A DNA stretch of 64,000 bases from an uncultured Gammaproteobacteria bacterium (lineage in GTDB: Bacteria > Patescibacteriota > Patescibacteriia > Magasanikbacterales > UBA922), in contig CAYGHM010000002.1 of the NCBI GenBank assembly GCA_964349825.1, positions 620 to 64,619 on the forward strand, read 5' to 3'. The notes under the pieces are model-generated. The model had not been told where the DNA came from. It saw only the letters and a list, made by a program, of their open reading frames with translations, and did not search any database. This document shows, piece by piece, positions 5,282 to 51,079 of the stretch (the first letter of the stretch is position 1; the number at the start of each line of letters is the position of its first letter). The position numbers and the translations under genes were made by a program.

Positions 5282-5317
5282 GTCATCTCTGGCAATTCAG
5301 GGACAAAACAGGTAATA

Positions 5318-7015: not shown

Positions 7016-7025
7016 GGCTATAACC

Positions 7026-7301: not shown

Positions 7302-7339
7302 CCCTTATTATACAAAAATCCGCCATAAAGGCGGATATG

Positions 7340-7423
7340 TGGGCCGGGCATGATTCGAACATGCGAAGGCGCAAGGCCAGCAGATTTACAGTCTGCCCCG
7401 GTTGACCGCTTCGGTACCGACCC
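7340..7423 (-). tRNA. tRNA-Tyr (GTA), type II with long variable arm
   Basis: The reverse complement GGGTCGGTACCGAAGCGGTCAACCGGGGCAGACTGTAAATCTGC...TGTTCGAATCATGCCCGGCCCA has acceptor, anticodon and T stems that pair, and an anticodon loop CUGUAAA. Confidence 0.75.
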
Positions 7424-7502
7424 ATCTAACTCATTTACAATGACAGCTAGTGATTATTAGTTAACAACGGTTAGTTAGCAATCATTAAATGTCCATTAAT
7501 TG

Positions 7503-7594
7503 TGGGCCGGGCATGATTCGAACTGCGAAGCCCGCCAACGTCGGCGGGCAGCAGATTTACAGTCTGCCCCGGTTGACCGCTTCGGTACCGACCC
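7503..7594 (-). tRNA. tRNA-Tyr (GTA), second copy, with an unusually long GC-rich variable arm
   Basis: Same acceptor, D, anticodon and T arms as copy 1. The variable arm is TGCCCGCCGACGTTGGCGGGCTTCGCA and the total length is about 92 nt. Confidence 0.6.
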
Positions 7595-7688
7595 AAGATC
7601 AATATTCAATTTTCAATTTCTAATTTTTAATTGCATTCCACTTAGCACATAAATGGAAATTGAGAATTGAAAATTGGAAATTTCTAAT

Positions 7689-9587: not shown

Positions 9588-10847
9588 TTAAAAGATGATA
9601 TTTTTTTCTTCTACATCTCCAATAATACCAACACGCATTTCTTTTAATACGAATAATTTTTTCGCAACTTTTTGTACATCTTCCTGGGTTACCGCATCAA
9701 TAAACGCAATGCGTTCCTGTGGAGTATATATTTTATCCATAAATAAATGCTGTTTGGCATACCAACCTGCCTGCGCACTCGAATCTTCCATAGACAAGGT
9801 TAACCCGCCATGAATATGCGTCTTCGCATCAGCAAGCTCTCGTTTTGACACGCCCTTCTCCGCCATCCGTTGGACTTCTTCTTGAATTGCCTTTATTGCT
9901 TTATTCAAATTTTTTGCCTCAAGTCCAGCGCGGATAAACACATATCCTTTGTCACGGAACGTATCCGATCCACTGCGAACACTATACGCTAGTCCTAACT
10001 TTTCTCGAATACGGACAAAAAGACGTGAACTCATAGAACCACCCAGAATCGTATTCATGACGGAAACAGCTGGATTGTGTGGATCAGTATGAGAAAAACC
10101 AGGAAATCCGAGCATGAGCTGTACTTGATCCGTCTTTTTATGCTGGATAAACAAACGCTCTTTTTTTCCACTACTTCCAAAACGAGCCGGCTCAAAAGGG
10201 CGGATTTTTGGCGCTTTTCCAACATGACCACCAAAATATTCTTCCACAATCTTTTTGGTTTCTTCGGTAATACGTCCCGCAACCACAATAGTCATATTTG
10301 CAGGATGGTAATACTTATTATGAAAAGCAAGGACCTCGTCACGCTTATACGACAAGACATGTTTTTCTGTTCCAGCAATATCTGACCCAAGCGCTCCTTC
10401 AAACATAACTTGTTCAAAGACGCTATCGATATTCATGAGTGGATTATCATGATACATCCGAATTTCTTCCACAATAACATGTTTCTCTTTCTCCATTTCT
10501 TTTGCATCAAAAACAGAATGGAATAACATGTCTGAAAGAATATCGCAAGAAATATGCGTATATGATGCGTCAGTTTTAATATAATACCCCGTATATTCTT
10601 TTCCCGTAAACGCATTATACTCTGCACCAAGCCGATCAATTTCACGGGTCAAAATAAACGAGTTTTTTCTTTTTTTTGTTCCTTTAAACATGAGATGTTC
10701 AATATAATGAGAAACACCTCGCATCTTTTCTGTCTCATAACGCGATCCAACCGGATACATGATCATGACCGTCGCCGAAGCAGTGTCTTTTTGCGCTACC
10801 AAAATAACATTTGCTTTGTTTTTTAATTGATATTGTTCGTAATGCAT
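9588..10847 (-). CDS. M16-family zinc peptidase (pitrilysin/insulinase-like)
   Basis: The inverted zinc motif HYIEHLMFKGT (HxxEH) is present, at about 419 aa. Confidence 0.8.
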   Translation of the reverse strand: MHYEQYQLKNKANVILVAQKDTASATVMIMYPVGSRYETEKMRGVSHYIEHLMFKGTKKRKNSFILTREIDRLGAEYNAFTGKEYTGYYIKTDASYTHISCDILSDMLFHSVFDAKEMEKEKHVIVEEIRMYHDNPLMNIDSVFEQVMFEGALGSDIAGTEKHVLSYKRDEVLAFHNKYYHPANMTIVVAGRITEETKKIVEEYFGGHVGKAPKIRPFEPARFGSSGKKERLFIQHKKTDQVQLMLGFPGFSHTDPHNPAVSVMNTILGGSMSSRLFVRIREKLGLAYSVRSGSDTFRDKGYVFIRAGLEAKNLNKAIKAIQEEVQRMAEKGVSKRELADAKTHIHGGLTLSMEDSSAQAGWYAKQHLFMDKIYTPQERIAFIDAVTQEDVQKVAKKLFVLKEMRVGIIGDVEEKNIIF

Positions 10848-15769: not shown

Positions 15770-15854
15770 AACATGCGAATTACGAATAATACCGAATTAC
15801 GAATATATATACTTTGGTAATTCGTTATTCGTCCCCATTCGTAATTCGCATGTT
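15770..15854. mobile_element. MITE-like repeat copy B (short, 85 bp) between the GT4 stop and the holB start
   Basis: aacatgcgaattacgaat...attcgtaattcgcatgtt: perfect 18-bp TIRs with an internal ccgaattacgaat/attcgttattcg subrepeat. Confidence 0.55.
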
Positions 15855-17074: not shown

Positions 17075-17145
17075 AAGAATTTAGAATAAAGAATGAAGAA
17101 TCAAATGTATTTTATTCTCTATTCTAAATTCTTATCTCGTTGCCA
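17075..17145. repeat. GAATAGA/GAATGAA-type palindrome (family copy 3)
   Basis: gaagaatttagaataaagaatgaagaatc...tattttattctctattctaaattcttatc. Confidence 0.55.
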
Positions 17146-19633: not shown

Positions 19634-19770
19634 AGTTAATGCTTTAATATTTCCGAATCTACAAATTTGCCCCAATCAACGAATTCTACTAATCTACCAA
19701 TTATAAAATGCTGAATATCTGTAGTTTTGTAGAATTTGTAGGTTAGGAAAAATTTGTAGATTCGGACGTA

Positions 19771-21258
19771 TTACTTTCTTTTTTTCTTAGAAACATTGAA
19801 TCCTAAATATTTACCAAACATCATATGTGTTACCGCATCAATAGCGGGAATTGCACTTACAAAAATCATAGAAATAGGAACTAGTACCCACTGTAATGCC
19901 ATAGTAATCATTTTATAGCGCGGTTCAGAATCGGGCATTTTTGGCAAAAGTGGAAAACTCAATACAGCGGTCATAAACAGTCCAACCATAGAAATAGTCA
20001 TGAGCGTTTCGAGCATGTGTGGCGCATTAAAATATAATGCCGTTTGGCGAACTTCCTCACCGGCCACCCACATAGGCAGACGACCAAGAATAGTAATGAT
20101 AATTGCCACCAAACACCATGACCATTTTCCTTCCCATTCCAAAAAAATATATTTTGCTTTTTTCCACAGAGGAATTTTATTTCCTTTTAAACGGAATTCC
20201 CACAATAAATACGGCACGTGTTCCACGCCCCACGCCCAACGGCGTTGTTGTTTGTACAAATTTTTAATACTCTGCCACCACGAATCATCACGCGGCGTAT
20301 CCATAGACACAGGAAGATACATCGGTGTAACAGAATAATCTCCATTATACGTCAAAAGACATTGATAAAAAATACGAGAATCCTCACTCACAATACGCTT
20401 ATCATGAAACCCGGCATCAACCAGTGCGCGAAAACTCAATGAATGCGATGAAAATGTCACTAGTCCGTCCTGACGCGCAAGCGAGGTAAGCATCCAGAAG
20501 GTGGTACCAAATGCCATAATACGCAATACCGCAGGCGACTCCCACATATTATTATTATACAAAGCAATCGGCTGATAAGAACTTCTCGTTGGATTTGAAT
20601 GCGTACAGTATAAATACGTGAGATACCCAAAATACTGTGGATGGCACACGGTATCAATATCAAAAATAGTCGCAATAATATCATCGTATTCCCAGCCTTT
20701 TTTATCAATATATTTTTTTGCTTCCCGTTCTGCATAATGAAGATTGGATCCTTTGCCCGGAATTTCTTCTTGCAAATGCATAGGATGACAGGTGCCAATA
20801 ATCGTTCCAAAGCTATCGCCGTAAGTCTGTTTTACCAATTGCAAAATATGTTCATGATGTGTTTTAGCCCGTTCTTCACCAGCAATGACAATTAAAAACT
20901 GTTCTTTGTCATACGCGGCGTCACAAACACTTTGTATCGCAGTATGCACAACATCCCACGTCTCATCATACAATGTCAAAAATACAACATGTCTTTTTTT
21001 CTTCCAATCCGGAATCTCATGAAATAATTTATCTTTCCAATCAAGGCGTCTAGCCACACGGAAACGAGTCCAGGCAACCGTAAGATAAAAGGCAAAATTA
21101 AGTACTTTTAATACCCAATAAATATCAAATACAATAATAAAATAGATCATCCATAGAGGACGAACGTACGCAAGAAATAAAGACAAAATAAGAGTCAACC
21201 AAATAGAAAGACCCGGGAGCACTTCGTACAACCGATACCGATGATAATCCGACAACAT
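19771..21258 (-). CDS. processive family-2 glycosyltransferase (cellulose/chitin-synthase-like) with multiple TM helices
   Basis: The QQRRWAWG (QxxRW) motif, D-rich loops (LYDETWD, IFDIDTV) and N- and C-terminal TM helices are present. Confidence 0.65.
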   Translation of the reverse strand: MLSDYHRYRLYEVLPGLSIWLTLILSLFLAYVRPLWMIYFIIVFDIYWVLKVLNFAFYLTVAWTRFRVARRLDWKDKLFHEIPDWKKKRHVVFLTLYDETWDVVHTAIQSVCDAAYDKEQFLIVIAGEERAKTHHEHILQLVKQTYGDSFGTIIGTCHPMHLQEEIPGKGSNLHYAEREAKKYIDKKGWEYDDIIATIFDIDTVCHPQYFGYLTYLYCTHSNPTRSSYQPIALYNNNMWESPAVLRIMAFGTTFWMLTSLARQDGLVTFSSHSLSFRALVDAGFHDKRIVSEDSRIFYQCLLTYNGDYSVTPMYLPVSMDTPRDDSWWQSIKNLYKQQRRWAWGVEHVPYLLWEFRLKGNKIPLWKKAKYIFLEWEGKWSWCLVAIIITILGRLPMWVAGEEVRQTALYFNAPHMLETLMTISMVGLFMTAVLSFPLLPKMPDSEPRYKMITMALQWVLVPISMIFVSAIPAIDAVTHMMFGKYLGFNVSKKKRK

Positions 21259-23361: not shown

Positions 23362-24786
23362 TTATAGAATAGTAACACATCCATTATTCGCATCGACTTC
23401 AACATACATACCGCTCTCCAATAATTTTGTTGCCACTTTGGTGCCGATCACACATGGCTTTTTCATCTCTCTCGCAATAATTGCTGCATGGCAAGTAATA
23501 CCACCTTCATCAGTGACAAACCCAGCAGCACGTTCCATGGCAGGCACCATATCGGGTGTCGTCATAGCAGCAACAATAATATCGCCAGCTTCAACCAACA
23601 AAAGATCTTTTTTATGTTTAATTTTTTTCACCTTTCCTCTCACGAGACCACGATACGCGACAGCCCCCTTAATTTCCTCTATTTCTTCTGCTTTATGGAG
23701 ATATGTTTCACGCCAAATTACTTCATCCTCTTTTCTGTCTGAGAATTGTACATTCCCCGGTTCAAGAGCGAGTAACGCAAACCAGTCATCACGACGAGAT
23801 TTTACATCTAAACCAATTGTTTTCCACTGAGCAAGTTCATCCGCACGCAAGGCAGAAATTTCCTCAAGTGTCACCCCCATTCGTTTTGCAATTTCTTCCA
23901 AAAGAGGTACGATCCGAGCATACGCGCATGCGAGATAATCGGTACGGCATGTACGAAAATAAACTATCTCTTTGGCAATCGTTACCACATGTCGAATGTC
24001 ATCATCAGCATGCAATGTGTTGAGCAACTCTTTCGACCGCTGTAAATGTATATTTACGTCCTCCTTCATTTCATGAAGTACTTTTTCGCAATCATTTTCC
24101 AATACCTGATTTAATCGCACGCGAACATCAGAAACATCCCACGCTGTACCACTTCCACCACGAATATTTGTCCACCCAAATTCCTGAGCATGGTCTTGTA
24201 AAAGCTGATCTAACTTATCAGATGGATTTTCCAACTCGCCTCGCTGAATCTGAGCGCCAATCTCAAGTAATGCATATTTTTCAACCGTCTGCACATTTAC
24301 CTTTTCAGGAAAACTAATAATTGCCAATTCCTCCTCAAGATCAGCTCTGTTTTTCAAAAAATCACGCAAACGATCTTCTATCGGAAATTGCAGGCCGTAT
24401 CCTGGCAATGTAACCGCAAACGTCTGAAACATTGTGAGAAAATTATCCCACATAGCCATGAGTTCACTGTCTTTTTTCGAAGTAAAATCATTTTTTTCTA
24501 TCTCTTTCGCATACGCAACCATCTTTTCACCATAGGTATATATTGTATCAAATACACCAGCAAGAAATCCCCGCTCCTCGGTTTCTTTTTTGAGTAATTT
24601 TTCAATAAGCTCAAAACTTTCCGGTCCGTACCACCATTCACCATTAAAATATCCGCAAGTAATATACGTATTATCAAGATGATACAGTGTCTTATAATGT
24701 TCAGGCGTTGAAAGTCCCCGAACATAAATGTCCGCAATCAAAACAGTGTATGGACGAGTAACAATAAGATTTAATTTGTTGTGCAT
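23362..24786 (-). CDS. PEP-utilising-enzyme swivel-domain protein, paralog 4 (unique N-terminal domain + C-terminal phosphohistidine domain)
   Basis: The C-terminus GDIIVAAMTTPDMVPAMERAAGFVTDEGGITCHAAIIAREMKKPCVIGT is the PEP-utilisers mobile domain with its catalytic His. Confidence 0.75.
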   Translation of the reverse strand: MHNKLNLIVTRPYTVLIADIYVRGLSTPEHYKTLYHLDNTYITCGYFNGEWWYGPESFELIEKLLKKETEERGFLAGVFDTIYTYGEKMVAYAKEIEKNDFTSKKDSELMAMWDNFLTMFQTFAVTLPGYGLQFPIEDRLRDFLKNRADLEEELAIISFPEKVNVQTVEKYALLEIGAQIQRGELENPSDKLDQLLQDHAQEFGWTNIRGGSGTAWDVSDVRVRLNQVLENDCEKVLHEMKEDVNIHLQRSKELLNTLHADDDIRHVVTIAKEIVYFRTCRTDYLACAYARIVPLLEEIAKRMGVTLEEISALRADELAQWKTIGLDVKSRRDDWFALLALEPGNVQFSDRKEDEVIWRETYLHKAEEIEEIKGAVAYRGLVRGKVKKIKHKKDLLLVEAGDIIVAAMTTPDMVPAMERAAGFVTDEGGITCHAAIIAREMKKPCVIGTKVATKLLESGMYVEVDANNGCVTIL

Positions 24787-24788
24787 AA

Positions 24789-26117
24789 TTAATTTTTAGT
24801 AAGAATGGTAATTTTTCCTATATGCGCATCTACCTCGACCAGGTCTCCGTCCTTCAAAACTTTTGTTCCAATCTTTGTCCCAATGATACACGGCTTATTC
24901 ATCTCTCGAGCGACAATTGCTGCATGCGATGTAATACCACCAATATCAGTGACAAATGCCGCAGCGCGACGCATACCCGTCAAAAAATCAGGTGTTGACA
25001 TGGCAGCGACGAGAATATCACCTTGTTCAATCTTCGCGCATTCTTTTGCATGAAGCACTACTTTTACTTTTCCAACTACTTTCCCCGGCTGCGCGCACAT
25101 CCCGGTGATTTCTGTTGGCCGCTCTTCTGTGCTCTTCACTTGTTCCTCTTTTCCTTCAAATAATTCAACAGCGCTATCAGTAATTTCCAAAATAAAATTA
25201 TTGCGTGTATCAAATTTCGGCTTGATGTACATGCGGCCGTGCAATACATTTTTTACCTCCTCAATGCGCATGTGTAATAATTCATCATACTGCACAATAT
25301 CGGCAAAACATATCATGACCATTTCTCGAAATAAATATGTGCCATAACAATTGGCTTCCCATTTTTCCGTACGCAATCGAAGAAGTTGCTCAGCATACCG
25401 GACAAATGGTGAATCAACTGCTTCCATTTCTTTTTGTTCTTCGGGTGCATGATGAAGACTATCACGAAGCATCACATACGCTTCAATAACGGTCCATGGA
25501 TGGCCTTTAAAATATTTCATCCCGAGGTATCCATATTTTTTACAAAACGTTTGCAGATCTTCTGTAAGAGAACTCGATAATTCATGTAATTCTTTTCCTT
25601 CCGTATCAAGCAATTCATCACGATATCTGTTTGCCAACTCCGTCAACAGCACTGATGCGCGTGTCGTATCTGTCACAGCAGAACGCATCGCATGCGGTGG
25701 AATACCTTGTCTCGTCAATTCAGCGCTCAACCCGGACTCCAAAACAAATCGCGCAATAGATCCGGTAGCTCGCATTGCTTCATCGAAATATTCATCAATA
25801 AGTTCGGGATGCTGACGCGCAGTATGGAGTTCTGTTTCAAATCTTTTTAAAAATGTTTTGAAGCGATCAAAAATAGTTTCAATCTCATGAATAAGATTAG
25901 TATATTGTTCATCCGTAAGAAGTTTCGTTCCCATTTCCGTATACTGCGCCAATGACCAATTGATATCCCCATTAATATGATTGTACTGAATATACGGATA
26001 CTGAAATGAAAAACCTAATTTCGTAAAATCGGTATATGTATAAATACCACTCAATACCAAATCCTGGGTCAATAAATCAGACCGATGGTTGACAATAATT
26101 TCCCAATCTCTTTGCAT
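24789..26117 (-). CDS. PEP-utilising-enzyme swivel-domain protein, paralog 3
   Basis: C-terminal GDILVAAMSTPDFLTGMRRAAAFVTDIGGITSHAAIVAREMNKPCIIGT; the N-terminal ~330 aa are unrelated in sequence to the other paralogs. Confidence 0.75.
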   Translation of the reverse strand: MQRDWEIIVNHRSDLLTQDLVLSGIYTYTDFTKLGFSFQYPYIQYNHINGDINWSLAQYTEMGTKLLTDEQYTNLIHEIETIFDRFKTFLKRFETELHTARQHPELIDEYFDEAMRATGSIARFVLESGLSAELTRQGIPPHAMRSAVTDTTRASVLLTELANRYRDELLDTEGKELHELSSSLTEDLQTFCKKYGYLGMKYFKGHPWTVIEAYVMLRDSLHHAPEEQKEMEAVDSPFVRYAEQLLRLRTEKWEANCYGTYLFREMVMICFADIVQYDELLHMRIEEVKNVLHGRMYIKPKFDTRNNFILEITDSAVELFEGKEEQVKSTEERPTEITGMCAQPGKVVGKVKVVLHAKECAKIEQGDILVAAMSTPDFLTGMRRAAAFVTDIGGITSHAAIVAREMNKPCIIGTKIGTKVLKDGDLVEVDAHIGKITILTKN

Positions 26118-26121
26118 ATAT

Positions 26122-27540
26122 CTACGCTTTAGTCAGCACTTTAATAGTCCCTTTACTCGCATCGACTTCTACTATATCCCCATCTTTCAATATAGTCGTC
26201 GCCACTTTGGTGCCTACAATACAAGGCACACCAAGCTCGCGAGAAACAATCGCCGCATGAGAAGTAAGTCCGCCAGTATCCGTGACAACGGCGCTTGCCT
26301 TTTTCATGATAAAAACATATTCAGGTGTTGTCATGGAAGTAACCAATACATCTCCATCATCAAACCCTACCACATTATGCGGATCAAGCACAATTTTTAC
26401 TTTCCCTGTCACCAGACCCTTTCCTTTACAGGCAATAATACCACTAAAATTTTCAGTACTAGCGTCTACTTGCACATCCACATAAAGTTTCCAGCCGTCG
26501 AGTGTTTCTGATGAGCCCAAAAACTGAACGGTGTTTTCACTTCCGTACACACCAAAAGCTTTCTTTCTCTCATTCGGATCAACAGCGACCGTACGACCAT
26601 TTAGTAGTTCAATAATTTCTGCCCCGGAACAATTCAATAACGTGTTCACATCGAACTGTGGCAAACGCTGTGCTGCCTCAACAAGCAAAATATGCTTATA
26701 ATGCAAATAAATCCAGATATCTTTTTTTCGTGTATCCTGCCATACGATTGCGTCGGTAATCGCTTCTGCAATTGCCATAACTGAATCAGGCAATTTATAT
26801 TCTTCCTGTGTTTCAATTTTTTGCTGACGCACGAGAGCCAATCTTTCCTCTACCTCTTTTCGTATATCCAGAGAAAGTGTTTTTTTTCTTTCTGCAAAAA
26901 ATTCTACTGGCAATACTTCTACATTGGCATAACTATTTCGCAACCAAAAATATTTTTGTTGATGTACAGCAATATCATCCGTCTCGACCAAATCGATTTC
27001 TTCTTCCTGATAAAATGATTTTCCTTCAGGGGCAGTCAATATTTCCATGACATGCATCATCTGTTCTTCTGGAACAAACGGAACAAGCGAACGACGCAAT
27101 ACATCACTTGATCCATAGTTTGATAATTCTGGCAGAATGGCATATACCCAAAATGTCTTCAATAATTTTCCAAAACGTAATAACACATCTTGAAAGGCTT
27201 CGAATGATAAAAGGGACAAGTCAGTAGCGCCAATCTCTTGATTAAGCATGGTAAAATCATGATGTGCCACCATCCACTGTGCGCGAACAGACTCTCGTTT
27301 CTCACGTGGAAGCATCATTTCCAGAAACAGTTTTTCTCCATTTCGCTGCAATGCATCAGCTTCATGCATCCACACCATTCGATTCTCTTTAAATAAAGCT
27401 AAAAAATCTGGCCATCCATATCCAGGAAATTCCTCTGGATAGTCAATAAAAAAAACATCAAAACAATCTGCATAATAAATGTAGAATGGCGTAGGCCCCC
27501 ATTTGAAAATTTCTTTATGTGGATCAAGGTATTGTTTCAT
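26122..27540 (-). CDS. PEP-utilising-enzyme swivel-domain protein, paralog 2
   Basis: C-terminal GDVLVTSMTTPEYVFIMKKASAVVTDTGGLTSHAAIVSRELGVPCIVGT. Confidence 0.75.
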   Translation of the reverse strand: MKQYLDPHKEIFKWGPTPFYIYYADCFDVFFIDYPEEFPGYGWPDFLALFKENRMVWMHEADALQRNGEKLFLEMMLPREKRESVRAQWMVAHHDFTMLNQEIGATDLSLLSFEAFQDVLLRFGKLLKTFWVYAILPELSNYGSSDVLRRSLVPFVPEEQMMHVMEILTAPEGKSFYQEEEIDLVETDDIAVHQQKYFWLRNSYANVEVLPVEFFAERKKTLSLDIRKEVEERLALVRQQKIETQEEYKLPDSVMAIAEAITDAIVWQDTRKKDIWIYLHYKHILLVEAAQRLPQFDVNTLLNCSGAEIIELLNGRTVAVDPNERKKAFGVYGSENTVQFLGSSETLDGWKLYVDVQVDASTENFSGIIACKGKGLVTGKVKIVLDPHNVVGFDDGDVLVTSMTTPEYVFIMKKASAVVTDTGGLTSHAAIVSRELGVPCIVGTKVATTILKDGDIVEVDASKGTIKVLTKA

Positions 27541-27543
27541 AAA

Positions 27544-28548
27544 CTAAGTTATTTTTCTAATAATTCCTCTGTTCGCATCAACCTCAATAATATCTCCATC
27601 TTTCAACAATTGCGTTGCAATCTTCGTTCCAATAACGCAAGGAATCTTCATCTCTCTAGAAACGATAGCGGCGTGACAGAGTAATCCACCCTCATCAGTA
27701 ACAAAGGCTCCGGCCAATTTCATTGCTGGTAAAAAATCCGGAGTTGTCATTGGCGAAACCAAAATATCACCCTGAAGTACTTTTGATAAATCTTCCTTGG
27801 TATACACAATTTTTACCTTTCCTATTACAGTGCCTTTATACCCTATCTGTCCGCTAATTTCTTTTGCATCAACAACGTCATCAGATGTCAATTCAAAGGC
27901 TTTTTCTGTTGCAAGTTTTTCTATACTGAGAGGATAAATATTTGCAGCACAATCCTCCACAAATAGATTGCTTACATCTGAAATTCTAGAAAATTCTATA
28001 TATTCTATTAATTGTTTTACCTGTATAACTTTTACCTGTTCTAAGGGTAACCCGCTTGATACAAGAGATCTTCTTATAAAATCATCAGCGAGGCTCCAAA
28101 GATCATCTCCTTCTCTCTGTTCTTTACTCCAGCTACGTATATCATCCGGCCATTCTTCTGTCATTGAAGAAATAAACATGACGTGATTTGAAAAACGAAG
28201 GTCGTTAAATAGTCGACACATTTCCAAAACGTCTTTTGGATATACATCTTTTTTTTCTGAAAGTTTTCTTATGCTTTCGGCGATTCGTGTATAATCTTTT
28301 TTTGTTTGTTCAAATAATACACTATCAGTAAGTAGGCTATCTTTTATCTTATTATTCCAGTAATCAAACGATTCCTTGTTTAACCAAAATTCAACAACTC
28401 CATTTTTTACATACTTCAGGACCGGACTACTCAACACCGGATCAAAAGAATCAACCAAGGCTTCTGGAAAATGATAAAAACCAGAAGATGCTAGTAAAAA
28501 TGTAATATCTCTGGAATATGTTTTTTCAAAAACAATTTTTTTATTCAC
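27544..28548 (-). CDS. PEP-utilising-enzyme swivel-domain protein, paralog 1 (shortest, 334 aa)
   Basis: C-terminal GDILVSPMTTPDFLPAMKLAGAFVTDEGGLLCHAAIVSREMKIPCVIGT. Confidence 0.75.
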   Translation of the reverse strand: MNKKIVFEKTYSRDITFLLASSGFYHFPEALVDSFDPVLSSPVLKYVKNGVVEFWLNKESFDYWNNKIKDSLLTDSVLFEQTKKDYTRIAESIRKLSEKKDVYPKDVLEMCRLFNDLRFSNHVMFISSMTEEWPDDIRSWSKEQREGDDLWSLADDFIRRSLVSSGLPLEQVKVIQVKQLIEYIEFSRISDVSNLFVEDCAANIYPLSIEKLATEKAFELTSDDVVDAKEISGQIGYKGTVIGKVKIVYTKEDLSKVLQGDILVSPMTTPDFLPAMKLAGAFVTDEGGLLCHAAIVSREMKIPCVIGTKIATQLLKDGDIIEVDANRGIIRKIT

Positions 28549-28638
28549 ACTGTTTGAATCTTATTCAATCAAAATTAAATTACACTTCTCCTTCATCGTA
28601 TTTTACAAATAACTTTCAAATATATTTGGATATAAATT

Positions 28639-29583
28639 TTACCCCAAAGTCGTAATTGGTCGACTCTGCACAACATAAATAGTACTGTTCTGCATTGCCC
28701 ATTCAATATCACAAGGGAAACCATAGTGCTTTTCAATGCGCATAATCACATCCGACAATTCAACAATCTGTCGACCGGATAATTTTTGCACTGCCTTTTT
28801 ATTATCTTCAACATCTACCCATTCATTACCGCCCTCTGACTTTCGTACCATCATGCGTTCCTGATCAGCAATATTAATATCGAGAATATTACGTGGTTCT
28901 TTTTCCAATACATAACTATCTGGCGTAATCTGTCCGGACACCACTGCTTCTCCCAATCCCCAACCCGCTTCGATAATCATTTGATTATAATCTTGTGTTA
29001 CCGGGTGAACAGAAAATGCGATACCAGAAATTTCTGACTGAACCATCACTTGCACCACAACCGCCACTGAGACGTGGGTTTCACTAAATCCTTTTTCAAA
29101 TCGGTAAAAAATCGCACGCGGCGTAAACAATGATGCCCAACAACGACGAACATTCGTAAGTAAATTTTCTTCGTTTGTATTTAAATAACTTTCCAACTGT
29201 CCTGCCCACGCAGCCTCTGCTCCATCTTCTGCTGTCGCACTCGATCGAACCGCGACATATTCAGCATTCAATCCGTGAAATGATTCAATAATTGATTTTC
29301 CCAAATCTTCAGGAAAAGCCACATTCAAAATAAGCGCATGGATCTGCTCAGAAGCGTTTTCAATCGTATGAATTTCTTGAACATTTACCTTGCCTAAAAT
29401 CGCATTGATCTCTACATTCAAATCAGTTTCTTCAATAAAACGATCAAAAGCAGGAGCGGTAACAACAAATCCTGGAGGTACTGGAATGCCTGCTCGAGTC
29501 ATTTCTCCGAGAGAAGCACCCTTTCCTCCGGCAATATCAACATGATCTTTGGAAAGCTCAGTAAAAGGAACTACGTATTGCAT
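28639..29583 (-). CDS. stand-alone ATP-grasp nucleotide-binding domain protein of PEP synthase / pyruvate phosphate dikinase N-terminal type
   Basis: MQYVVPFTELSKDHVDIAGGKGASLGEMTRAGIPVPPGFVVT...AVRSSATAEDGAEAAWAGQ...FSVHPVT...IEWAM is the PPDK_N/PpsA N-terminal signature. It is the first gene of the five-gene operon. Confidence 0.8.
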   Translation of the reverse strand: MQYVVPFTELSKDHVDIAGGKGASLGEMTRAGIPVPPGFVVTAPAFDRFIEETDLNVEINAILGKVNVQEIHTIENASEQIHALILNVAFPEDLGKSIIESFHGLNAEYVAVRSSATAEDGAEAAWAGQLESYLNTNEENLLTNVRRCWASLFTPRAIFYRFEKGFSETHVSVAVVVQVMVQSEISGIAFSVHPVTQDYNQMIIEAGWGLGEAVVSGQITPDSYVLEKEPRNILDINIADQERMMVRKSEGGNEWVDVEDNKKAVQKLSGRQIVELSDVIMRIEKHYGFPCDIEWAMQNSTIYVVQSRPITTLG

Positions 29584-30078: not shown

Positions 30079-30185
30079 AAGAGAATGAAGAATGAAGAAT
30101 AGAGAATAGAGAATAGAGTAAAATGCATTTAATTTATTCTTCATTCTTTATTCTCTGTTCTTAATTCTCTGTTCTTAATTCTCTA
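30079..30185. repeat. GAATAGA/GAATGAA-type long palindrome (family copy 4)
   Basis: aagagaatgaagaatgaagaatagagaatagagaatagag...ttattcttcattctttattctctgttcttaattctctgttcttaattctct. Confidence 0.6.
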
Positions 30186-30187
30186 CA

Positions 30188-30790
30188 CTAAACATCAAGT
30201 TTATTCACCACTTTAAAATTCTTCCCCTCAAACATGCTGAATAAAAACTTATCCATCATCTCACGACGGTCACGAAATTCACGTTCTGTCATGAGGGTAT
30301 AACGGATTTCATTGCCGCTTTCTTTTTCATACTCTTCGATCATGCGGGCAATAGTATTTTCTTTGAGGTCGCCAACGATAAGCATGTCACTGGTGGCATC
30401 GTATTCACCTACGAACCTTCCGGCGAGAATGAGAAGCAATACAGAACCGCTCTTATCTTGAAGGGTTCGCAAAAATTGCTGTTCTTCCATAACCTGCGCC
30501 TTCATAATAAGCTGGTGCAATTCCGGATGCATAAGAGACCCAGTATTGAGCTGATAGTATTTTCTCAATGTCGATCCTGCTTTATATTTGTCTGACCGTT
30601 TCTGATCTTCCGCTTCAATAATAATATCAGCATCAAGAAGAAGCTGCAGTTCACGACGAATCGCATTGATCTGGGTATCAATCTGACGCGCCAATTCACG
30701 AACAAAAAAAGTCTTCTCAGGATTGTGGAAGAAGAGCTTCAATAACTTAACCCGGGTTTTTGAACCAAAAAGGTGTTCAAGCATACTAAA
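30188..30790 (-). CDS. winged-helix DNA-binding protein (putative transcriptional regulator)
   Basis: MFSMLEHLFGSKTRVKLLKLFFHNPEKTFFVRELARQIDTQINAIRRELQLL has HTH character. The start was moved to the internal Met because the listed 5-prime extension runs through the MITE copy. Confidence 0.45.
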   Translation of the reverse strand, partial: FSMLEHLFGSKTRVKLLKLFFHNPEKTFFVRELARQIDTQINAIRRELQLLLDADIIIEAEDQKRSDKYKAGSTLRKYYQLNTGSLMHPELHQLIMKAQVMEEQQFLRTLQDKSGSVLLLILAGRFVGEYDATSDMLIVGDLKENTIARMIEEYEKESGNEIRYTLMTEREFRDRREMMDKFLFSMFEGKNFKVVNKLDV

Positions 30791-30909
30791 CATGCGAACT
30801 ACGAAAAATACGAAAGTACGAACAATACAAAGCGAAAATGATTCTGAACTGACAAATTTACAAGTTACCCCCATTTCGTAATTTCGTCCCATTTCGTAAT
30901 TCGCATGTT
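30788..30909. mobile_element. MITE-like repeat copy C (diverged, with internal ACGAA/TTTCGTAA direct subrepeats) in the divergent promoter region
   Basis: aacatgcgaactacgaaa...tttcgtaattcgcatgtt; its right end abuts TTGTCT-N17-TATAAT just upstream of the 30968 gene. Confidence 0.5.
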
Positions 30910-30967
30910 TGTCTATCACGATTACATAGAGTATAATACCGCTAGGCCCAAAAGTCAAAGTATCATT

Positions 30968-33232: not shown

Positions 33233-33534
33233 ACACATGTTTATCTATCGGTGTAAATCTTCTATCCTTGACAAAAGGACCTCTTCATCTAAGAAGAATT
33301 CAAGAGAACGGAACTCCGTTCTCCGAAGAAGTCAAACAATAGATACAGGAAATGATCGTCGTTGGAGAAACCCAAATCCCCTTTGATGAAATCAGATCTC
33401 TCACAGCTGCGATAAAAAACGCCCGGCAAAGCGGTCGAGGAGTTTGAAAGAGTGTTGCCTCGCTCTCTCCCCTACCAGTGTATATAACATGTCATGAATA
33501 CCAATGTCGCAAATACAGGCACATTAATAAATTA

Positions 33535-33571
33535 AAAAACCTCTCCGATATTCTCGGAGAGGTTTTTTTAT
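33535..33571. terminator. intrinsic terminator downstream of rplL (bidirectional)
   Basis: aaaaaaCCTCTCCGAtattcTCGGAGAGGttttttt. Confidence 0.7.
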
Positions 33572-33582
33572 CGATTGAACGA

Positions 33583-35148: not shown

Positions 35149-35280
35149 ATATGTATCGTTAAGATAATAATAAAATGATTATACTCCATCGAATATATTC
35201 TCTGTCAAGAAAATGCAACAAAATAGGGATATTTTAAACAAAACAGTTAAAAAACACCCCGACTGAGTCGGGGTGTTTTT

Positions 35281-35355
35281 TGGTAGCGCCAAGGGGAATC
35301 GAACCCCTGTTCCCAGGATGAAAACCTGGTGTCCTGACCACTAGACGATGGCGCC
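35281..35355 (-). tRNA. tRNA-Glu (TTC), CCA encoded
   Basis: Reverse complement GGCGCCATCGTCTAGTGGTCAGGACACCAGGTTTTCATCCTGGGAACAGGGGTTCGATTCCCCTTGGCGCTACCA; anticodon loop UUUUCAU. Confidence 0.8.
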
Positions 35356-38441: not shown

Positions 38442-39569
38442 ATGATCATCCTCGCCATCGAATCCTCCTGCGACGATACTTCAGTCGCCTTACTCGACGC
38501 CTCCGACGAGGGTATTATTGTGCTCGAACAAAAAACTGCGAGCCAGATTGATATTCACAAAAAATATGGCGGTGTTGTTCCTGAAGTGGCAGCGCGCAGA
38601 CATGCGGAAGTTATTCTTCCTGTGGTCGAAACTGTCATGACATCTCTTTCTGTGGGATCATACCCTGGTATGATCCACTCTCCCAACAAACCGGATGCCA
38701 TTGCCGTAACCTCTGGTCCCGGTCTCATCACCGGCCTTATGGTTGGTATTGAAGTGGCAAAAACATTGTCATACACATGGAATGTGCCGCTTATCGGCGT
38801 GAATCATATTGAAGGACATATACACTCATCAATTCTAAATGACAAATTTCAAATTTCAAATTTCAAAAAAAATGCCTTTCCTGCGGTGTGTTTGATAGTA
38901 AGTGGCGGACATACGGAATTAATTTTGATGAAAGACTTTGGTGTATACGAAAAAATTGGTGGAACTAGGGATGATGCGGCAGGAGAAGCATTTGATAAAG
39001 TAGCAAAATTACTAGGATTGGAATACCCAGGCGGACCAAAAATTTCCGAATATGGAAAAACAGGAAATCCCCATGCGATTCGCTTTCCCCGCCCCATGGC
39101 GGATAGCGATGATTTTGATTTTAGTTTTTCTGGATTAAAAACAGCCGCACTCTACTGGTTGAGAGATAATTCTCTCCAGGAAATAAACACAAATCCATTT
39201 GGTGCGATTGCTTCGTGGTTTGGAACAAAAAAAGATGGCATTACCAAAAATGATTTTTGTGCATCTATCGAACAAGCCATTGTAGACGTATTGGTAAAGA
39301 AAACCATGAATGCCATTAAAAAATATAAACCAAAATCTCTCATTCTCGGAGGCGGTGTGAGTAATAATACAAAACTCCGAGAAACCTTGGTGTACGCAGC
39401 AGCACCAGAATTAGGAAAAGAACATATTCATATTCCGGAACGCGAATACACGATGGATAATGCAGCAATGATCGGCGCTGCGGCATATTTTAGACTGAAA
39501 AAAGGTGAGCACATTTCTCGGAAAGACATTCAGCCTGATCCAAATTGGAAAGTATACGATAAAAAATAA
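38442..39569 (+). CDS. tsaD: tRNA N6-adenosine threonylcarbamoyltransferase TsaD (Kae1/YgjD family)
   Basis: MIILAIESSCDDTSVALL..., GVNHIEGHI, VSGGHTEL and DDAAGEAFDKVAKLLGL are canonical motifs. Confidence 0.9.
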   Translation: MIILAIESSCDDTSVALLDASDEGIIVLEQKTASQIDIHKKYGGVVPEVAARRHAEVILPVVETVMTSLSVGSYPGMIHSPNKPDAIAVTSGPGLITGLMVGIEVAKTLSYTWNVPLIGVNHIEGHIHSSILNDKFQISNFKKNAFPAVCLIVSGGHTELILMKDFGVYEKIGGTRDDAAGEAFDKVAKLLGLEYPGGPKISEYGKTGNPHAIRFPRPMADSDDFDFSFSGLKTAALYWLRDNSLQEINTNPFGAIASWFGTKKDGITKNDFCASIEQAIVDVLVKKTMNAIKKYKPKSLILGGGVSNNTKLRETLVYAAAPELGKEHIHIPEREYTMDNAAMIGAAAYFRLKKGEHISRKDIQPDPNWKVYDKK

Positions 39570-39598
39570 AAGAGAACCTACGTAGGCTCTCTTTTTTG

Positions 39599-42500
39599 TT
39601 ATTCAACCACAGATACTGATTCTTCCCCCACCATTTCTTTCAGAAAACTCTCCACATCTTTATTCCATCCTATCGTTGCCTGGGCACGAATCACATCGTT
39701 ACCAACACGGATATACACCGTATGCTGTCCTGGGTAGCGAGAGAAGACTGTTTTCAATCCTTCGCTGCATGCTTTTAATTGATCCCGTGTCATAGTTAGC
39801 GTAATCGTTTTTTCCGGAGCGGCATTTTTTTGTTCTGTTACTTTGCCGAGCGACAACTGTCGCGCAAGCATCTGAACATTATCTTTATTCAAAACATGAA
39901 CATTTTCTACAAATATTTTATTATCCCCTTCTTCTTTTGGTGTTTTTCCGACAATACACACGACTGTATTTTCTTTCCACAGTGCCTGAGTCGTTTCATA
40001 AATTTTTGGGAATACCAGTACTTCCATAGTTCCACTCGGATCTTGAATTGTGACAAAAAGCATCACGTTCCCCTTCTTGGTAATTTTCTTTTTTGCGCTA
40101 TCAATAACACCACATACAACAACCCACGCATCACGATCACACGCCTCTATATCTGAAAGCGGAGTAACGGTTCCTTTCATTTGGGACAAATACACTGCGC
40201 ATGGATGTGATGATACATACAATCCGAGTAAATTCTTTTCCCACGTTAATTTCTGGTCCATGGTTGCGACGGGCGCATCTTTCAGAATCAATTTATTTTC
40301 CATTTCAATCGCTGTGCCAGCAAATAAAGAAAACTGGGTTGTTTCTCGTTTGTCTCTCGTGTGCTTGGCAAATGATAGAATATTTTCACTATTGGTAAGC
40401 AAAACACCACGATCATGACCAAAACAATCGAGCGCTCCCGCTTGAGCCATGCTTTCGATCGATTTTTTATTTAAATCTTTATCCTGCACACGTTCCAAAA
40501 GATCTTGTAAACTTATATATGTTCCATGTTCTTTGCGTTCACGATACACGACTTCACACACATGAGTTCCTACATTTTTAATTGCATTCAAACCAAAACG
40601 AATACGCCCTCGCTCCCCTGGTTTTGATACCATAGCAAAGTTTCGGAAACTTTCATTCACATCCGGAGGAAGTACCTCAATATTCATGCGATGACATTCA
40701 TGAACAATGGCCGCAACTTTCTCTGAATCGCCAAATTCCGCAGCCAAGACAGCTGTCATATACTGTACAGGATAATGTGCTTTCATGAACGCAGTCTGAT
40801 ACGCCACGATACCATAACTTGCCGCATGGGCTTTATTAAATCCATAGGCAGCAAACGGTTCGATTGCCCGCCACATTTCATCAACGATATCTTTTTTCAG
40901 TTTTCCATGATTCAAACAGCCATCGTAAAATTTAATTTTCTGCTGCGCCATTTCTTCTGGAATTTTTTTACCCATGGCTTTACGGAATTTATCCGCTTCC
41001 ATCCAGTCGTACCCCGCCAATTCAATAGCGGTCAACATCACATCGTCCTGATATACAAGAAGTCCGTATGATGCCTGTAAAATTTTCTCAAGGCGAGGAT
41101 CAAAATATTTTACAAATTCAGGATTGTATTTACGCTTAATATATTCAGGGATAGATTCCATCGGACCAGGGCGGTATAAAGCAACCATGGCCATGATATC
41201 ATCGATATTACTCGGACGAAGTTCCTTGAGCCAACGAGTCATACCGGAACCGGACAACTGAAACACACCCATAGTTTCTCCACGCGCGAGCATCTCAAAC
41301 ACCTTAGTATCATCAAGCGGCAAATTATAAATATCCACTTCTTCCCCTGTTGTTTTTTTTACAATTTCGACGGCATTTCCAAGAATCGCCAAATTACGAA
41401 TTCCCAAAAAGTCATTTTTTAATACCCCTGCAGTTTCAACGGCTTTCATTTCATACTGTGTCGTAATCCTATCCCCACCTGTTTCACGTTGGACGGGGGT
41501 ATAATCCGTCAATGGTGTCGGGGAAATAACCACACCTGCCGCATGAATAGATGTGTGGCGTGCACAGCCTTCTACTTTTTTTGCCAGATCAAGCAATCGT
41601 TGTGCATCTTCGTTTGAATCATACAATTTTTTCAAATCCGGTTCTTCTTTGAGCGCACGTTCAATAGTCATAGGAAAACCTTGCGCGCCTTGGGGAATCA
41701 TCTTTGATACCTGATCACAAAAATTATACGACAAACCAAGCGCACGACCCACATCTCGAACACTCGCGCGTGCAGCCATTGTCCCAAAGGTAATAATTTG
41801 AGCAACACGATCTGCACCGTATTTATTGGTAACATATTCAATCATTTCATCCCGACGATCATCGGCAAAATCGGTATCAATATCCGGCGCACTCGGACGA
41901 AATGGATTTAGGAAACGCTCAAACGGCAGTTTAAATCGCAATGGATCTACCGTGGTAATACCCATAACATACGATACCAGTGATCCGGCAGCCGAACCAC
42001 GAGTAGACTCCACGATACCTTTGCTTTTTGCAAAACGCACATAATCCGCTACACACAAAAAGTATGGAGAATATCCTTTTGTTCTAATAATACCCAATTC
42101 GTATTCCAAACGTTCGCGAATTTCATCCGTTAATTCTGGATAATACATGGAAACGCGAGCATACGTTTCTTCCTGAAGCACATCATCTTCTGTTTTTCCT
42201 GGCGGCAAATCAACGGGCGCAAAATGCCATATATTCAGTGGAATTTCCAGATTAATCCGATTGGCAATGACAACCGTATTTTGTACTGCTTCCGGAATAT
42301 GTTTAAAGCGTTCAGAAATTTCTTCGGCAGAACAAAATGACCGATCAATATCGCGATAATCAGCACGATCAGTATAACTTACTTTCCATCCCTCACGAAT
42401 ACAGCATAAAATATCCTGTGCTTCCGCATCTTCGGTATTAAGATAATGTACATCGCGACTTGCCACAAGCGGAATCCCCGTTTCTTGTGAAATCCGAATA

Positions 42501-43808: not shown

Positions 43809-43876
43809 CCAAAAAAGACCTGTCCAGCAAGACAGGTCTTTTCTTTTTAAAGGGGTTGGGCTAAGATACCATTACT

Positions 43877-44866
43877 ATGGTAGTTATTATCATTATCTTA
43901 TTAATCCTTATTATCATCCCACTTATGTCCCACGAAACTGGCGCATCACCAAAACATGTATTCATGTACCTGCTCCTCATCGCCATGCTTTACGTAAGTG
44001 TGGTCAGTTTTATTGCAATTATTTTTCAATATATTAATGTTCTTCTTCCTGATCCACTTCAATACTATTTACCGGGAATTTACGATACCATTCGATTTGC
44101 CTCATCCTCACTTGTTGTGGCCTTCCCAGTATATTTACTCATGTCTTGGCTTCTTGAAAAAGAATATATCCGTGTCCCCGAAGCAAAACAATTAAAAAGC
44201 CGAAAATGGCTTGTCTACCTCACTCTCTTTATTGCGGCAATCACTATCATTGTTGACTTGGTTCAATTGGTAAATAACTTTTATCGTGGTGAACTAACAT
44301 GGTCATTCACATTGAAAATAATGACTGTTCTTATTGTGGCGGCCACAGTATTTGGTTATCACTTATGGGATTTACAAAAAGACCTAGAAAGTAAAGTCAA
44401 AAAAATGATTGGAGGAATCATCTCAGTCGTTGTCCTCGCAACACTTATTGCCGGATTCTTCATTGCTGGCTCTCCACAACACCAACGAAATGTACGATTT
44501 GACCAGCAGCGCACGACAGATTTGAATACTATTCAATATCAAATTCTTGATTATTGGCAGAGAAAAAAAACATTACCTGCCCAATTGTCTGATTTGGAAG
44601 ACTCCATTACTGGATTCCAAGTACCAAAAGATCCGGCAACTGGTACAGCGTATACATATGAAATAAAAGGAAACCTTTCTTTTACTCTCTGTGCTGATTT
44701 TGCAGCGGAACAAGAAGGAGGAAAGGGAGACTCCCGCAATATTGCCCCCATGTATCCTATGAATGAATTTGGCGCGAACGACAACTGGTCTCACAAGGCA
44801 GGCCGCACCTGTTTCGACCGAACTATCGACCCGGAGAGACATGCTTTGCCACAACAGAAAATATAG
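43877..44866 (+). CDS. hypothetical polytopic membrane protein with hydrophilic C-terminal domain
   Basis: Five to six TM helices in the N-terminal 200 aa; the C-terminal DLNTIQYQILDYWQRKKTLPAQLSDL...DPATGTAYTYE is weakly pseudopilin-like. Confidence 0.4.
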   Translation: MVVIIIILLILIIIPLMSHETGASPKHVFMYLLLIAMLYVSVVSFIAIIFQYINVLLPDPLQYYLPGIYDTIRFASSSLVVAFPVYLLMSWLLEKEYIRVPEAKQLKSRKWLVYLTLFIAAITIIVDLVQLVNNFYRGELTWSFTLKIMTVLIVAATVFGYHLWDLQKDLESKVKKMIGGIISVVVLATLIAGFFIAGSPQHQRNVRFDQQRTTDLNTIQYQILDYWQRKKTLPAQLSDLEDSITGFQVPKDPATGTAYTYEIKGNLSFTLCADFAAEQEGGKGDSRNIAPMYPMNEFGANDNWSHKAGRTCFDRTIDPERHALPQQKI

Positions 44867-44952
44867 TGAACATGCGAATCCCTCCTTCGCTAAGAAGCTA
44901 CGGTCCGACGTAAAGTATGGACTCCGTATCGCAAGCATCGGAGCGGGCACGT

Positions 44953-45065
44953 ACGAATAATACCGAATTACGAATTATAATAAAAAAGACACCCTCTACT
45001 AAGCAGGGTGTCTTTTATTATTCGCTATTCGTACCGAGTCTTCGAGGATTCGTAATTCGCATGTT
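44953..45065. mobile_element. MITE-like repeat copy D (inverted relative to copy A; left TIR truncated) carrying a terminator hairpin with compensatory stem changes
   Basis: acgaataataccgaattacgaat...aaaaaagacaccct-ctactaagc-agggtgtctttt...ttattcgctattcgtaccgagtcttcgaggattcgtaattcgcatgtt; the 45-bp block is identical to the reverse complement of copy A. Confidence 0.55.
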
Positions 45066-45067: not shown

Positions 45068-45415
45068 CTATCGTCGTGCTTTTTTCTTTTTCCGCTTTAC
45101 CTCTTTTTCAAGGTCGATATCATCGAAATCCATAGAAGAACTTTTGTCGATCTTTCCAACAATATATTTTTCGATGACGCTTGCGAGCATAGAACTCATT
45201 ACACCCATTTTTCCAGATACACCATCCATTTTATCGCGGATAAATTCAACAGCATCGGAAATCATTTCCAATTGATTGGTGAGCTTTTCAATAATACGGT
45301 TTGCATTACGCAAAACTCGCGCGGCTTGATAGAGGAGCCAGCAAAGAAATACAGTGAACCATACGATCGATAACGAAAGAACAATATAAAATAAATCTTG
45401 ACTAGTGGTAAACAT
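45068..45415 (-). CDS. small membrane-anchored coiled-coil protein (hypothetical)
   Basis: N-terminal TM IVLSLSIVWFTVFLCWLL and a C-terminal charged tail; 115 aa. Confidence 0.35.
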   Translation of the reverse strand: MFTTSQDLFYIVLSLSIVWFTVFLCWLLYQAARVLRNANRIIEKLTNQLEMISDAVEFIRDKMDGVSGKMGVMSSMLASVIEKYIVGKIDKSSSMDFDDIDLEKEVKRKKKKARR

Positions 45416-50432: not shown

Positions 50433-50996
50433 ATGACAGCAGTGTATATCCTTATTGGTATAATTGTCCTCCTCGGCCTGTGGATCATTGGCCTATACAA
50501 TGGCCTTATTACCCTACGAAACCGTGTAAAAGAAGCATGGAGTGATATTGATGTTCAATTGAAACGTCGGCACGATCTTATTCCAAACTTACTAGAAAGC
50601 GTAAAGGGGTATATGACCCATGAACGCACTTTGCTTGAAAACATCACAAAAGCTCGTTCCCAAGCTATGACTGCACAAGCAAGTGGGAACACAGCCGAAC
50701 TCGCAAAAGCAGAATCCGCCTTATCCAGTATGATGGGAAGTTTGCGTATTGCCGTTGAAGCTTATCCAGATCTCAAAGCAAATCAAAACATGGCACAGCT
50801 CATGGACGAATTATCCGATACAGAAAACAAAATTCAAGCATCACGTCGCTTCTACAATGGACAGGTGCGTGATTTCAATACAAAAGTTGAACACTTCCCA
50901 ACAAATATGATCGCAGGATCATTGAAATTCGAAAAATTTGGATACTTCGAGATTGAAGATCCAAAAGAACGCGAAAATGTACAGGTGAAATTCTAA
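50433..50996 (+). CDS. lemA: LemA-family membrane protein
   Basis: N-terminal TM followed by YNGLITLRNRVKEAWSDIDVQLKRRHDLIPNL, the LemA signature. Confidence 0.8.
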   Translation: MTAVYILIGIIVLLGLWIIGLYNGLITLRNRVKEAWSDIDVQLKRRHDLIPNLLESVKGYMTHERTLLENITKARSQAMTAQASGNTAELAKAESALSSMMGSLRIAVEAYPDLKANQNMAQLMDELSDTENKIQASRRFYNGQVRDFNTKVEHFPTNMIAGSLKFEKFGYFEIEDPKERENVQVKF

Positions 50997-51070
50997 GAAT
51001 AGAGAATAATGAATAAGGAATATCGAGATGAAAAAAATTCTTCATTTTCAATTCTTCATTTTCAATTCTC
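50996..51070. repeat. GAATAGA-type palindrome (family copy 5, shorter)
   Basis: aagaatagagaataatgaataaggaatat...ttcttcattttcaattcttcattttcaattctc. Confidence 0.5.
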
Positions 51071-51079
51071 AAAAAAAAT

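Follow-up and report, generated by a model that had tools for sequence, protein, structure and literature searches.

Two intergenic palindromes of the 64,000-nt stretch of DNA analysed here (the window; G+C content 41%), termed elements A and D, enclose hairpins that differ in stem sequence and remain perfectly paired. Judging by homologue names and by the samples, the window belongs to an uncultured Candidatus Magasanikbacteria (Patescibacteria) from groundwater. When a third version of the hairpin (X) is added, every changed stem pair is found to be changed on both sides. The explanation preferred here, which is held to be probable without being secure, is that a resident terminator is enclosed by a palindromic shell that evolves in concert and is prone to recombination.

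Repeat Elements of the Window

Four copies of one repeat family (A, B, C and D; Table 1), 85-197 nt in size and all located between genes, are present in the 64 kb, with the termini AACATGCGAAT...ATTCGCATGTT. The arms are composed of degenerate tandem units of ~7 nt (NNCGAAT) and end in AACATGCGAAT; in A and D the units are irregular, 7-10 nt long, and for copy C periods of 8-9 were reported by Tandem Repeats Finder. The same program reported periods of 7, 14 or 21 at 2496-2592, 6510-6543, 7599-7682, 15776-15804, 17075-17101, 30080-30184, 38843-38867 and 51004-51069, i.e., head-to-tail units with a period of 7 do occur in the window. The terminus has seven matches in the 64 kb at 0-1 mismatch and nine at up to three mismatches, where 3.1 would be expected at up to three. 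As palindromes that are scattered between genes and form long hairpins, A-D are similar to REP/REPIN sequences, and by their terminal inverted repeats and small size to MITEs; the folding z-scores of the four copies range from -4.6 to -8.7 (B -8.7, C -5.9), and element A in full folds at -54.6 kcal/mol (z = -7.7). Rfam 15 contained no family that reached the gathering threshold for A or D, and in permissive Rfam scans there was no match at A and at D the matches were far below the gathering scores (best E = 0.028).

Element D fills a gap between convergent genes, beginning 3 nt behind the stop codon of 43877-44866 and ending 2 nt short of that of 45068-45415. The original prediction placed copy D at 44953-45065, which is too short: its first unit, AACATGCGAAT at 44869-44879, stands right behind the stop codon (44864-44866) and was split off by a 72-nt insert. 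Its position is exactly the border of two units of D, and it folds at -20.7 kcal/mol; no duplication is found at its ends, and no second copy of it in the window or at any fetched locus (fetched loci carry L numbers below). The neighbours of B, both on the minus strand, are genes for a glycosyltransferase and for the delta' subunit of DNA polymerase III. By sequence and folding, the centres of B and C contain neither a GC hairpin nor a T-run.

Table 1. Coordinates and context of the elements, hairpins, genes and related features (window positions unless a locus is named).
Feature	Position	Strand	Description
125-aa membrane protein gene	4776-5153	+	DoxX-like by the source's name for the homologue; stop codon abuts element A
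Element A	5154-5283		composite imperfect palindrome, ~7-nt CGAAT units, termini ACAACATACGAAT...ATTCGCATGTTGT, long arm left
Central hairpin A and T-run	5206-5240	+	predicted intrinsic terminator of 4776-5153 (folding, consensus scan)
Near-consensus promoter	5318-5346	+	TTGACA-17-TATACT with TG, 35 nt past A; followed by a leader, then gene 5518-6351
Element B	15770-15854		same termini and units; centre ATATATATACTTTGG without GC hairpin; between two minus-strand genes
Element C	30790-30910		same termini, CGAAA-type units in both arms; centre ~45 nt, non-palindromic
DUF5671 membrane protein gene	43877-44866	+	converges on element D
Element D	44869-45065		same subfamily as A, inverted relative to A
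72-nt insert in D	44880-44951		unique; separates the terminal unit from the rest of the arm
Central hairpin D	44984-45016		predicted bidirectional terminator (folding)
orf115	45068-45415	-	weak DUF948/YoxC-like match; last gene of the pheS-pheT-orf115 string; converges on D
Plain bidirectional terminators	739-777, 6997-7044, 33526-33576, 35249-35281, 39563-39600, 43813-43842		same A-run/stem/T-run design
dnaE/tsaD nested palindromes	L252 15631-15727; L253 ~10490-10600; L255 4214-4310		CGAAT palindrome within the outer GC stem

Central Hairpins and Covariation of Their Stems

The stem of copy A is formed by 5206-5218 and 5226-5238 (AAAAGACGTTCTC / GAGAACGTCTTTT, 13 bp) with the 7-nt loop CTAAGTA, starts 53 nt past the stop codon of the plus-strand gene 4776-5153 and carries the plus-strand T-run TTTTTT at 5235-5240. 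Its energy is -16.8 kcal/mol (z = -5.9 against shuffles), and it was the top match of a terminator-like consensus scan of 20 kb. In copy D, 44984-44995 pairs with 45005-45016 (AAAAGACACCCT / AGGGTGTCTTTT, 12 bp) around the 9-nt loop CTACTAAGC; the energy is -18.5 kcal/mol (z = -6.4 against shuffles) and T-runs are found on both strands (T6 on the minus strand, TTTTATTATT on the plus strand). This copy was missed by the terminator scan, since its loop exceeds the maximum of 8 nt that the scan covering D allows. In A as well as in D there is a stable GC-containing stem-loop, a U-tract 3' of the stem and a matching orientation downstream of a gene, and both hairpins share the A-run/stem/T-run design with the plain bidirectional terminators of the genome. 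It had been claimed that the two copies contain hairpins with differing stems and intact pairing and that the A-run and T-run flanks are retained; both hairpins are indeed present as quoted, without a mispair, in the order A-run, stem, loop and T-run. The central stems are 100% complementary in A, X, D, L252 and L258, and the arms that surround them 42-83%.

When D is reverse-complemented and compared with A, the arms are 96% and 91% identical and the hairpin 76%. The differences affect 8 of 25 hairpin positions against ~5 of 90 arm positions (Fisher p ~0.006), which makes the stem ~5-fold more diverged than the arms, and the six differences that lie in the stem amount to three exact complementary pairs. 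The third version, X, is found on contig L247 and has the hairpin AAAAACGTCCTC-TTTGTA-GAGGACGTTTTT; on L247 the 125-aa gene is identical, and the left arm differs from that of A by one mismatch. In the alignment of A, D and X, four of the 12 stem pairs carry changes in both partners, a one-sided change does not occur and 97% of the cells are paired, whereas slid controls of the same alignment gave 40-74% pairing and 0-1 double changes. Since the pair changes exceed these controls, the covariation is considered real, on three sequences, which are all the hairpin-bearing copies known. The view that covariation of the stem points to a selected secondary structure is thereby supported, and such selection is the best reading for the stem; we infer that the hairpin probably functions as an intrinsic terminator, the pairing of which is maintained by selection. 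Compensated changes are also seen in plain orthologous terminators compared with L252, e.g., at 43813-43842 and in the pheT/orf115 gap. The A/D-specific arm sequence CCTCGAAGACTCGGTACGAAT had no matches in the metagenome collection. The possibility that the central hairpin was flipped relative to its arms was rejected, because the loops fit a plain inversion of the entire element.

Gene Context and Predicted Termination

Both A and D lie immediately 3' of plus-strand membrane-protein genes (4776-5153 and 43877-44866), in agreement with the original prediction. The role of a bidirectional terminator, which was also proposed for the element, would fit D, where genes converge, and would not fit A, where there is a gene to terminate in the plus direction only; since the next gene, 5518-6351, is on the plus strand too, only that direction matters at A. 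This gene is 33% identical to its L258 orthologue, and the leader of ~100 nt that comes after its promoter (TTCTCAAGATA...GTAGCAGGGAGAAACATGCCCA; window 5314-5450, L258 6500-6620) is conserved in L258. No Rfam match to the 5314-5450 leader was obtained, and the promoter box recurs without the leader at 22325 and 37632. As a near-consensus promoter and a conserved leader follow 35 nt on, a terminator is to be expected at A. The terminator at A would end the transcript of the DoxX-like gene before the strong promoter that follows, and the one at D would end both convergent transcription units.

The A and D Loci in Related Genomes

In three syntenic relatives, L252-254 (84% amino acid identity in orf115), the convergent gap that D fills in the window is occupied by a palindrome of 114 nt. 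The centre of this palindrome reads AAATACACCC-TTGCACAAGCT-GGGTGTATTT and has the stem core ACACCC/GGGTGT in common with D; the arms are barely alignable with those of D (63-73%). The hairpin of D is 73% identical to that of L252 with seven of eight stem positions identical, and the stem core of D is nearer to this orthologue than to A. All of the 3-4 differences among L252, L253 and L254 are in the arms and none is in the hairpin. In L255, L256 and L260-262 (~67-71% amino acid identity) plain, armless intrinsic terminators are located directly after orf115. At the A locus of L257-259 (74-78% amino acid identity) the element begins right behind the same stop codon with a first unit that is still recognisable and alignable (CATGCGAAC, CTTGCAAGC or CACACGAAC), and it has arms and perfectly paired hairpins other than those of the window. 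At these positions the relatives thus have either elements that have diverged or plain terminators, and a precise empty site was seen in none of them; on the evidence of these comparisons both loci are long occupied.

The arms of orthologues are 63-75% identical overall, vs. the 96% and 91% of the paralogues in the window. Between orthologues the hairpin is conserved and the arms drift; between the window paralogues the reverse is the case. Such a contrast would be expected if the arms evolve in concert, or if a replacement at the level of the arms took place very recently, and it seems hard to reconcile with a recent transposition of the whole element followed by ordinary divergence. The loop of D agrees with that of A at seven of eight positions, while the stem of D resembles the L252 orthologue, and each of these likenesses has a chance of ~1e-3 before correction for several comparisons; for this reason the residency of the hairpin at the D locus is suggestive only. 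Where relatives derive from one and the same sample (L252 with L258; L253 with L257), the arms at the A locus and at the D locus are unlike each other, so that homogenisation of arms is not a general property.

In L247 (ERZ5996431 NODE_71034, 640-760) the left arm of A is joined to another hairpin and right arm and to an inverted DUF7205-like gene. In L257 this DUF7205-like lipoprotein gene is located ~7 kb upstream, and its terminator is a plain one. An inversion breakpoint inside element A, by which the DUF7205-like gene came to converge on the 125-aa gene, appears to have arisen in the related strain L247, at a coverage of 1.1 that makes a chimera possible. In the Logan contig L122 a C-type arm follows right after the DUF5671 gene, i.e., at the D locus. 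Together L247 and L122 would suggest recombination between copies. Contigs from several independent samples (L121, L122, L123, L248, L249, L251 and L257) end in or at the first units of A and D; since contigs of independent samples stop there, or in the case of L122 switch to a C-type arm, the repeats evidently break assemblies.

Palindromes with Tandem-Unit Arms Within and Beyond the Window

The same design is seen with AGAGAAT/ATTCTCT units at 2496-2592, 17075-17133, 30080-30184 and 50996-51075, and as a half-element at 6509-6553 that ends at the ATG of a peroxiredoxin gene (6560); the arm 51036-51075 likewise stops just before an ATG, at 51080. A palindrome of CAATTTT units (7599-7682) adjoins a tRNA cluster, and a CTACAAA-type palindrome (19645-19773) has arms of 53 nt. 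The palindromes of the window occupy intergenic gaps almost exactly, from the stop codon to the next gene. In the convergent dnaE/tsaD gap the window has a plain bidirectional terminator (39563-39600). In L252-255 a CGAAT palindrome lies within the same outer GC stem; this inner palindrome differs strongly between the relatives, and in L253 and L254 there is an additional nested mini-hairpin. The LemA/M48 gap holds palindromes of 7-nt units in the window and in L252 that differ in their unit. In L252 a very large palindrome (4958-5130), with AGTATTA heptamer arms of ~40 nt each and a centre of ~75 nt, occupies the divergent M50/LemA promoter region.

Other repeats of the window were noted as well. 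Two tandem tRNA-Tyr(GTA) genes (7339-7595 and 7026-7301 region), of 85 and 94 nt, are 98% identical in their 3' halves and lie beside a small ORF with a GIY-YIG domain. Four tandem paralogues at 23362-29583, each ending in a PEP-utilizers mobile domain and located downstream of a separate PPDK_N gene, share a 184-nt repeat at a spacing of ~1.4 kb.

Metagenomes were scanned with the pattern CGAATTACGAAT-N31-91-ATTCGTAATTCG, which matched at least 120 contigs with a G+C content of 0.26 to 0.72 among the matches listed. Of the 71 element contexts that were callable among the listed matches, 56 are co-directional, 9 divergent and 6 convergent, and the listed elements typically begin 8 nt past a stop codon. 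Since a strict central terminator was found in only 1 of the 122 palindromes listed, such a terminator is a feature of the A/D/X subfamily and not of the TACGAAT-armed class. A scan of the genome collection with the 15-nt terminus TTCGTAATTCGCATG returned 118 loci, mostly by chance as the query is too short, and ~10 of them have CGAAT repeats. Termini together with units were seen in MAGs labelled Magasanikbacteria, Patescibacteria, Bacteroidetes, Anaerolineae and Chloroflexia. When inner arms were compared in mirror image without gaps, 5.6 vs. 4.3 of 14 positions matched, a signal that is weak because indels are frequent. The literature on palindromes or MITEs of CPR bacteria yielded nothing relevant.

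The metagenome matches include a TACGAAT-armed subfamily (L161, L171, L234, L132, L208 and L236) with GAGCGAAGCG / CGCTTCGCTC in one arm, which contains GCGAAGC, a motif known as an unusually stable DNA mini-hairpin. At 7826 of L021 (Patescibacteria MAG) and 1643 of L071 (Anaerolineae MAG) the terminal CAT of CATGCGAATTACGAAT... is apparently a start codon on the opposite strand; the heptamer array in these two cases would therefore abut an ATG, with no visible Shine-Dalgarno sequence.

It may be that palindromes with arms of tandem 7-nt units, placed around or inside terminator hairpins, form a phylogenetically widespread and apparently undescribed class, which would spread or be homogenised without a transposase, by conversion or template switching that spares the centre, and would act as rearrangement breakpoints. 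This generalisation is put forward as a tentative one.

Origin of the Elements

The preferred reading, that of a resident terminator within a concertedly evolving shell, would be as follows. A, D and X would belong together as one subfamily within a family of intergenic repeats of a Candidatus Magasanikbacteria genome, each element being a composite palindrome with a canonical Rho-independent terminator at its dyad centre. The terminator would be the functional, locus-resident core, in which stem-breaking changes are purged by selection and only compensated pair changes persist, as in the plain terminators of the lineage. The arms would be the repeated part, kept near-identical between loci in the lineage of the window, most likely via recombination or gene conversion among dispersed copies, of which conversion is the homogenising process that we infer; the self-pairing centre would have retained its own sequence while the arms were homogenised. 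Owing to the shared homology of their arms, the elements may serve as rearrangement breakpoints. As to the role of the arms, one could guess that they extend or protect the 3' structure of the RNA.

In the original prediction the element was regarded as a MITE that carries a portable terminator. In this explanation, a non-autonomous MITE with the terminal inverted repeat AACATGCGAAT and its own bidirectional terminator was lately copied to A, D and X, after which the stems diverged while selection maintained their pairing. It is the weaker explanation and seems unlikely to be correct. The near-identity of the arms, which extends to the idiosyncratic stretch CCTCGAAGACTCGG, agrees with it, as do the enrichment of the terminus in the 64 kb, the existence of at least three hairpin-bearing copies and the graded series that their stems form (GTT, GTC, ACC). 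Moreover, the A-locus hairpin of L259 resembles the D-locus hairpin of L252, which suggests that whole modules may move between loci. However, no target-site duplication is present at A, B, C or D, the flanks of which prolong the inverted repeat (AACA/TGTT) without any direct repeat, and a Pfam scan of the ~50 window ORFs of at least 80 aa detected no transposase, recombinase, integrase or RAYT domain. Elements are positioned at the same nucleotide in relatives with 74-84% amino acid identity at both loci, i.e., the loci were occupied beforehand, and each locus has a single hairpin, next to which no second, resident terminator is present. The excess divergence of the stem over the arms is the opposite of the pattern between orthologues. 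Finally, within the family itself B (15770-15854) and C (30790-30910) are copies without a pairing-competent centre, the refuting observation that the original prediction had itself named, so that not every member has the hairpin.

An origin at the DNA level was considered as well, in which intrastrand template switching during replication would correct and lengthen quasi-palindromes and copy a mutation of one arm to the other, so that no selection on RNA function is required. Variants of the unit recur in both arms (CGAAA in C vs. CGAAT in B; TACAAAT mirrored in L113 and L124), the arms of L252 and L253 are set apart by an A:T to G:C change for which L254 is the half-step, palindromes are nested in one another, e.g., inside the dnaE/tsaD terminator stem of L252-255, and the same gap holds different 7-nt units in different lineages. 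Yet template switching should perfect the arms too, and their complementarity falls well short of that of the central stems; nor does it account for the terminator-like asymmetry of the hairpins, with their T-runs and their location at 3' ends, or for their conservation between orthologues. Such an origin is considered quite improbable. It is very improbable that the heptamers serve to bind a protein or an RNA-binding factor, an idea put forward for the TAACTGA repeats and the Nostoc heptamers, and that the central hairpin is incidental, for although half-elements or arms end at start codons (6509-6553, ATG 6560; 51036-51075, ATG 51080) and there resemble published heptamer arrays (PMC4679880; bioRxiv 10.1101/2022.06.06.494920), and although the contexts among the listed metagenome matches are mostly co-directional (56/71), unrelated units coexist in one genome (CGAAT, AGAGAAT, CAATTTT, CTACAAA), units that differ at orthologous gaps argue against one sequence-specific binder, and the perfect GC stems with T-runs are left unexplained.

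Two further candidates were rejected: an integron attC site, since the left flanks misfit RYYYAAC, core sites and an integrase are absent and the gene orientations are mixed, and a hairpin downstream of a DGR target (an Avd-like gene is located just upstream of the window), since the changes are transitions at paired positions and not adenine-specific.

Relation to Known Repeats and Significance

The hairpins of A and D are like bidirectional Rho-independent terminators in their A-run, GC stem of 9-13 bp, loop of 7-9 nt and T-run, in their location after stop codons and between convergent genes, and in the compensated evolution of the stem. Unlike plain terminators, they are placed at the dyad of a repeated palindrome of ~115-200 nt, the arms of which are common to several loci. 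REP/REPIN sequences, which are associated with RAYT, are also short intergenic palindromes that fold into long hairpins, are dispersed in many copies, often at the 3' ends of genes, and evolve as a family within a genome; effects of REP/BIME elements on termination and mRNA stability have been reported. In contrast to them, the A-D family has arms of ~7-nt tandem units and a central GC hairpin that is variable and sometimes absent, and no RAYT (Y1 transposase) gene flanked by repeats was found in the 64-kb window of this incomplete genome. With MITEs such as Correia, ERIC and RUP the elements share terminal inverted repeats, a size below 300 nt, intergenic location, multiple copies and RNA that can fold, and there are reported cases of bacterial MITEs that act on transcription or termination; A-D differ from Correia, ERIC and RUP in that they have no target-site duplication, no cognate transposase in the window and no clean empty sites in the relatives compared, and in that they occupy the same positions in diverged relatives. 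The A/D elements are best filed with the REP/MITE-like palindromic repeats, as a separate variant.

Intergenic heptamer tandem repeats include the cyanobacterial STRR. Others were described as TAACTGA repeats in Beggiatoaceae, Cyanobacteria and Bacteroidetes (PMC4679880) and as TTTTGAA repeats in Nostoc (bioRxiv 10.1101/2022.06.06.494920). These published repeats are, like the A-D family, intergenic tandem 7-nt units, often ending at a start codon and with the same unit across distant phyla, and such direct repeats (TAACTGA, Nostoc heptamers) are the nearest described phenomenon. They are, however, direct repeats, with one inverted case among the 170 sets of the TAACTGA survey (PMC4679880), whereas the arrays seen here are paired in inverted orientation, with a terminator hairpin either between them or enclosing them.

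If the preferred reading is true, a functional structure, here the terminator, can be separated from a concertedly evolving repeat shell by comparison of paralogues with orthologues. It also calls for caution, as covariation among the copies of a repeat does not prove that the entire repeat is a mobile functional module. The pattern has a bearing on assembly, since contigs from several samples break or swap partner exactly at the elements, on the annotation of intergenic regions in CPR genomes, and on the nature and origin of bacterial heptamer repeats, given that armed palindromes, outside or inside terminator stems, occur in at least 120 contigs. The elements would be of more interest if the class of heptamer-armed palindromes proves to be general; were that so, the covarying stem would be a trace of a general remodelling of intergenic spacers in the streamlined genomes of CPR bacteria and beyond.
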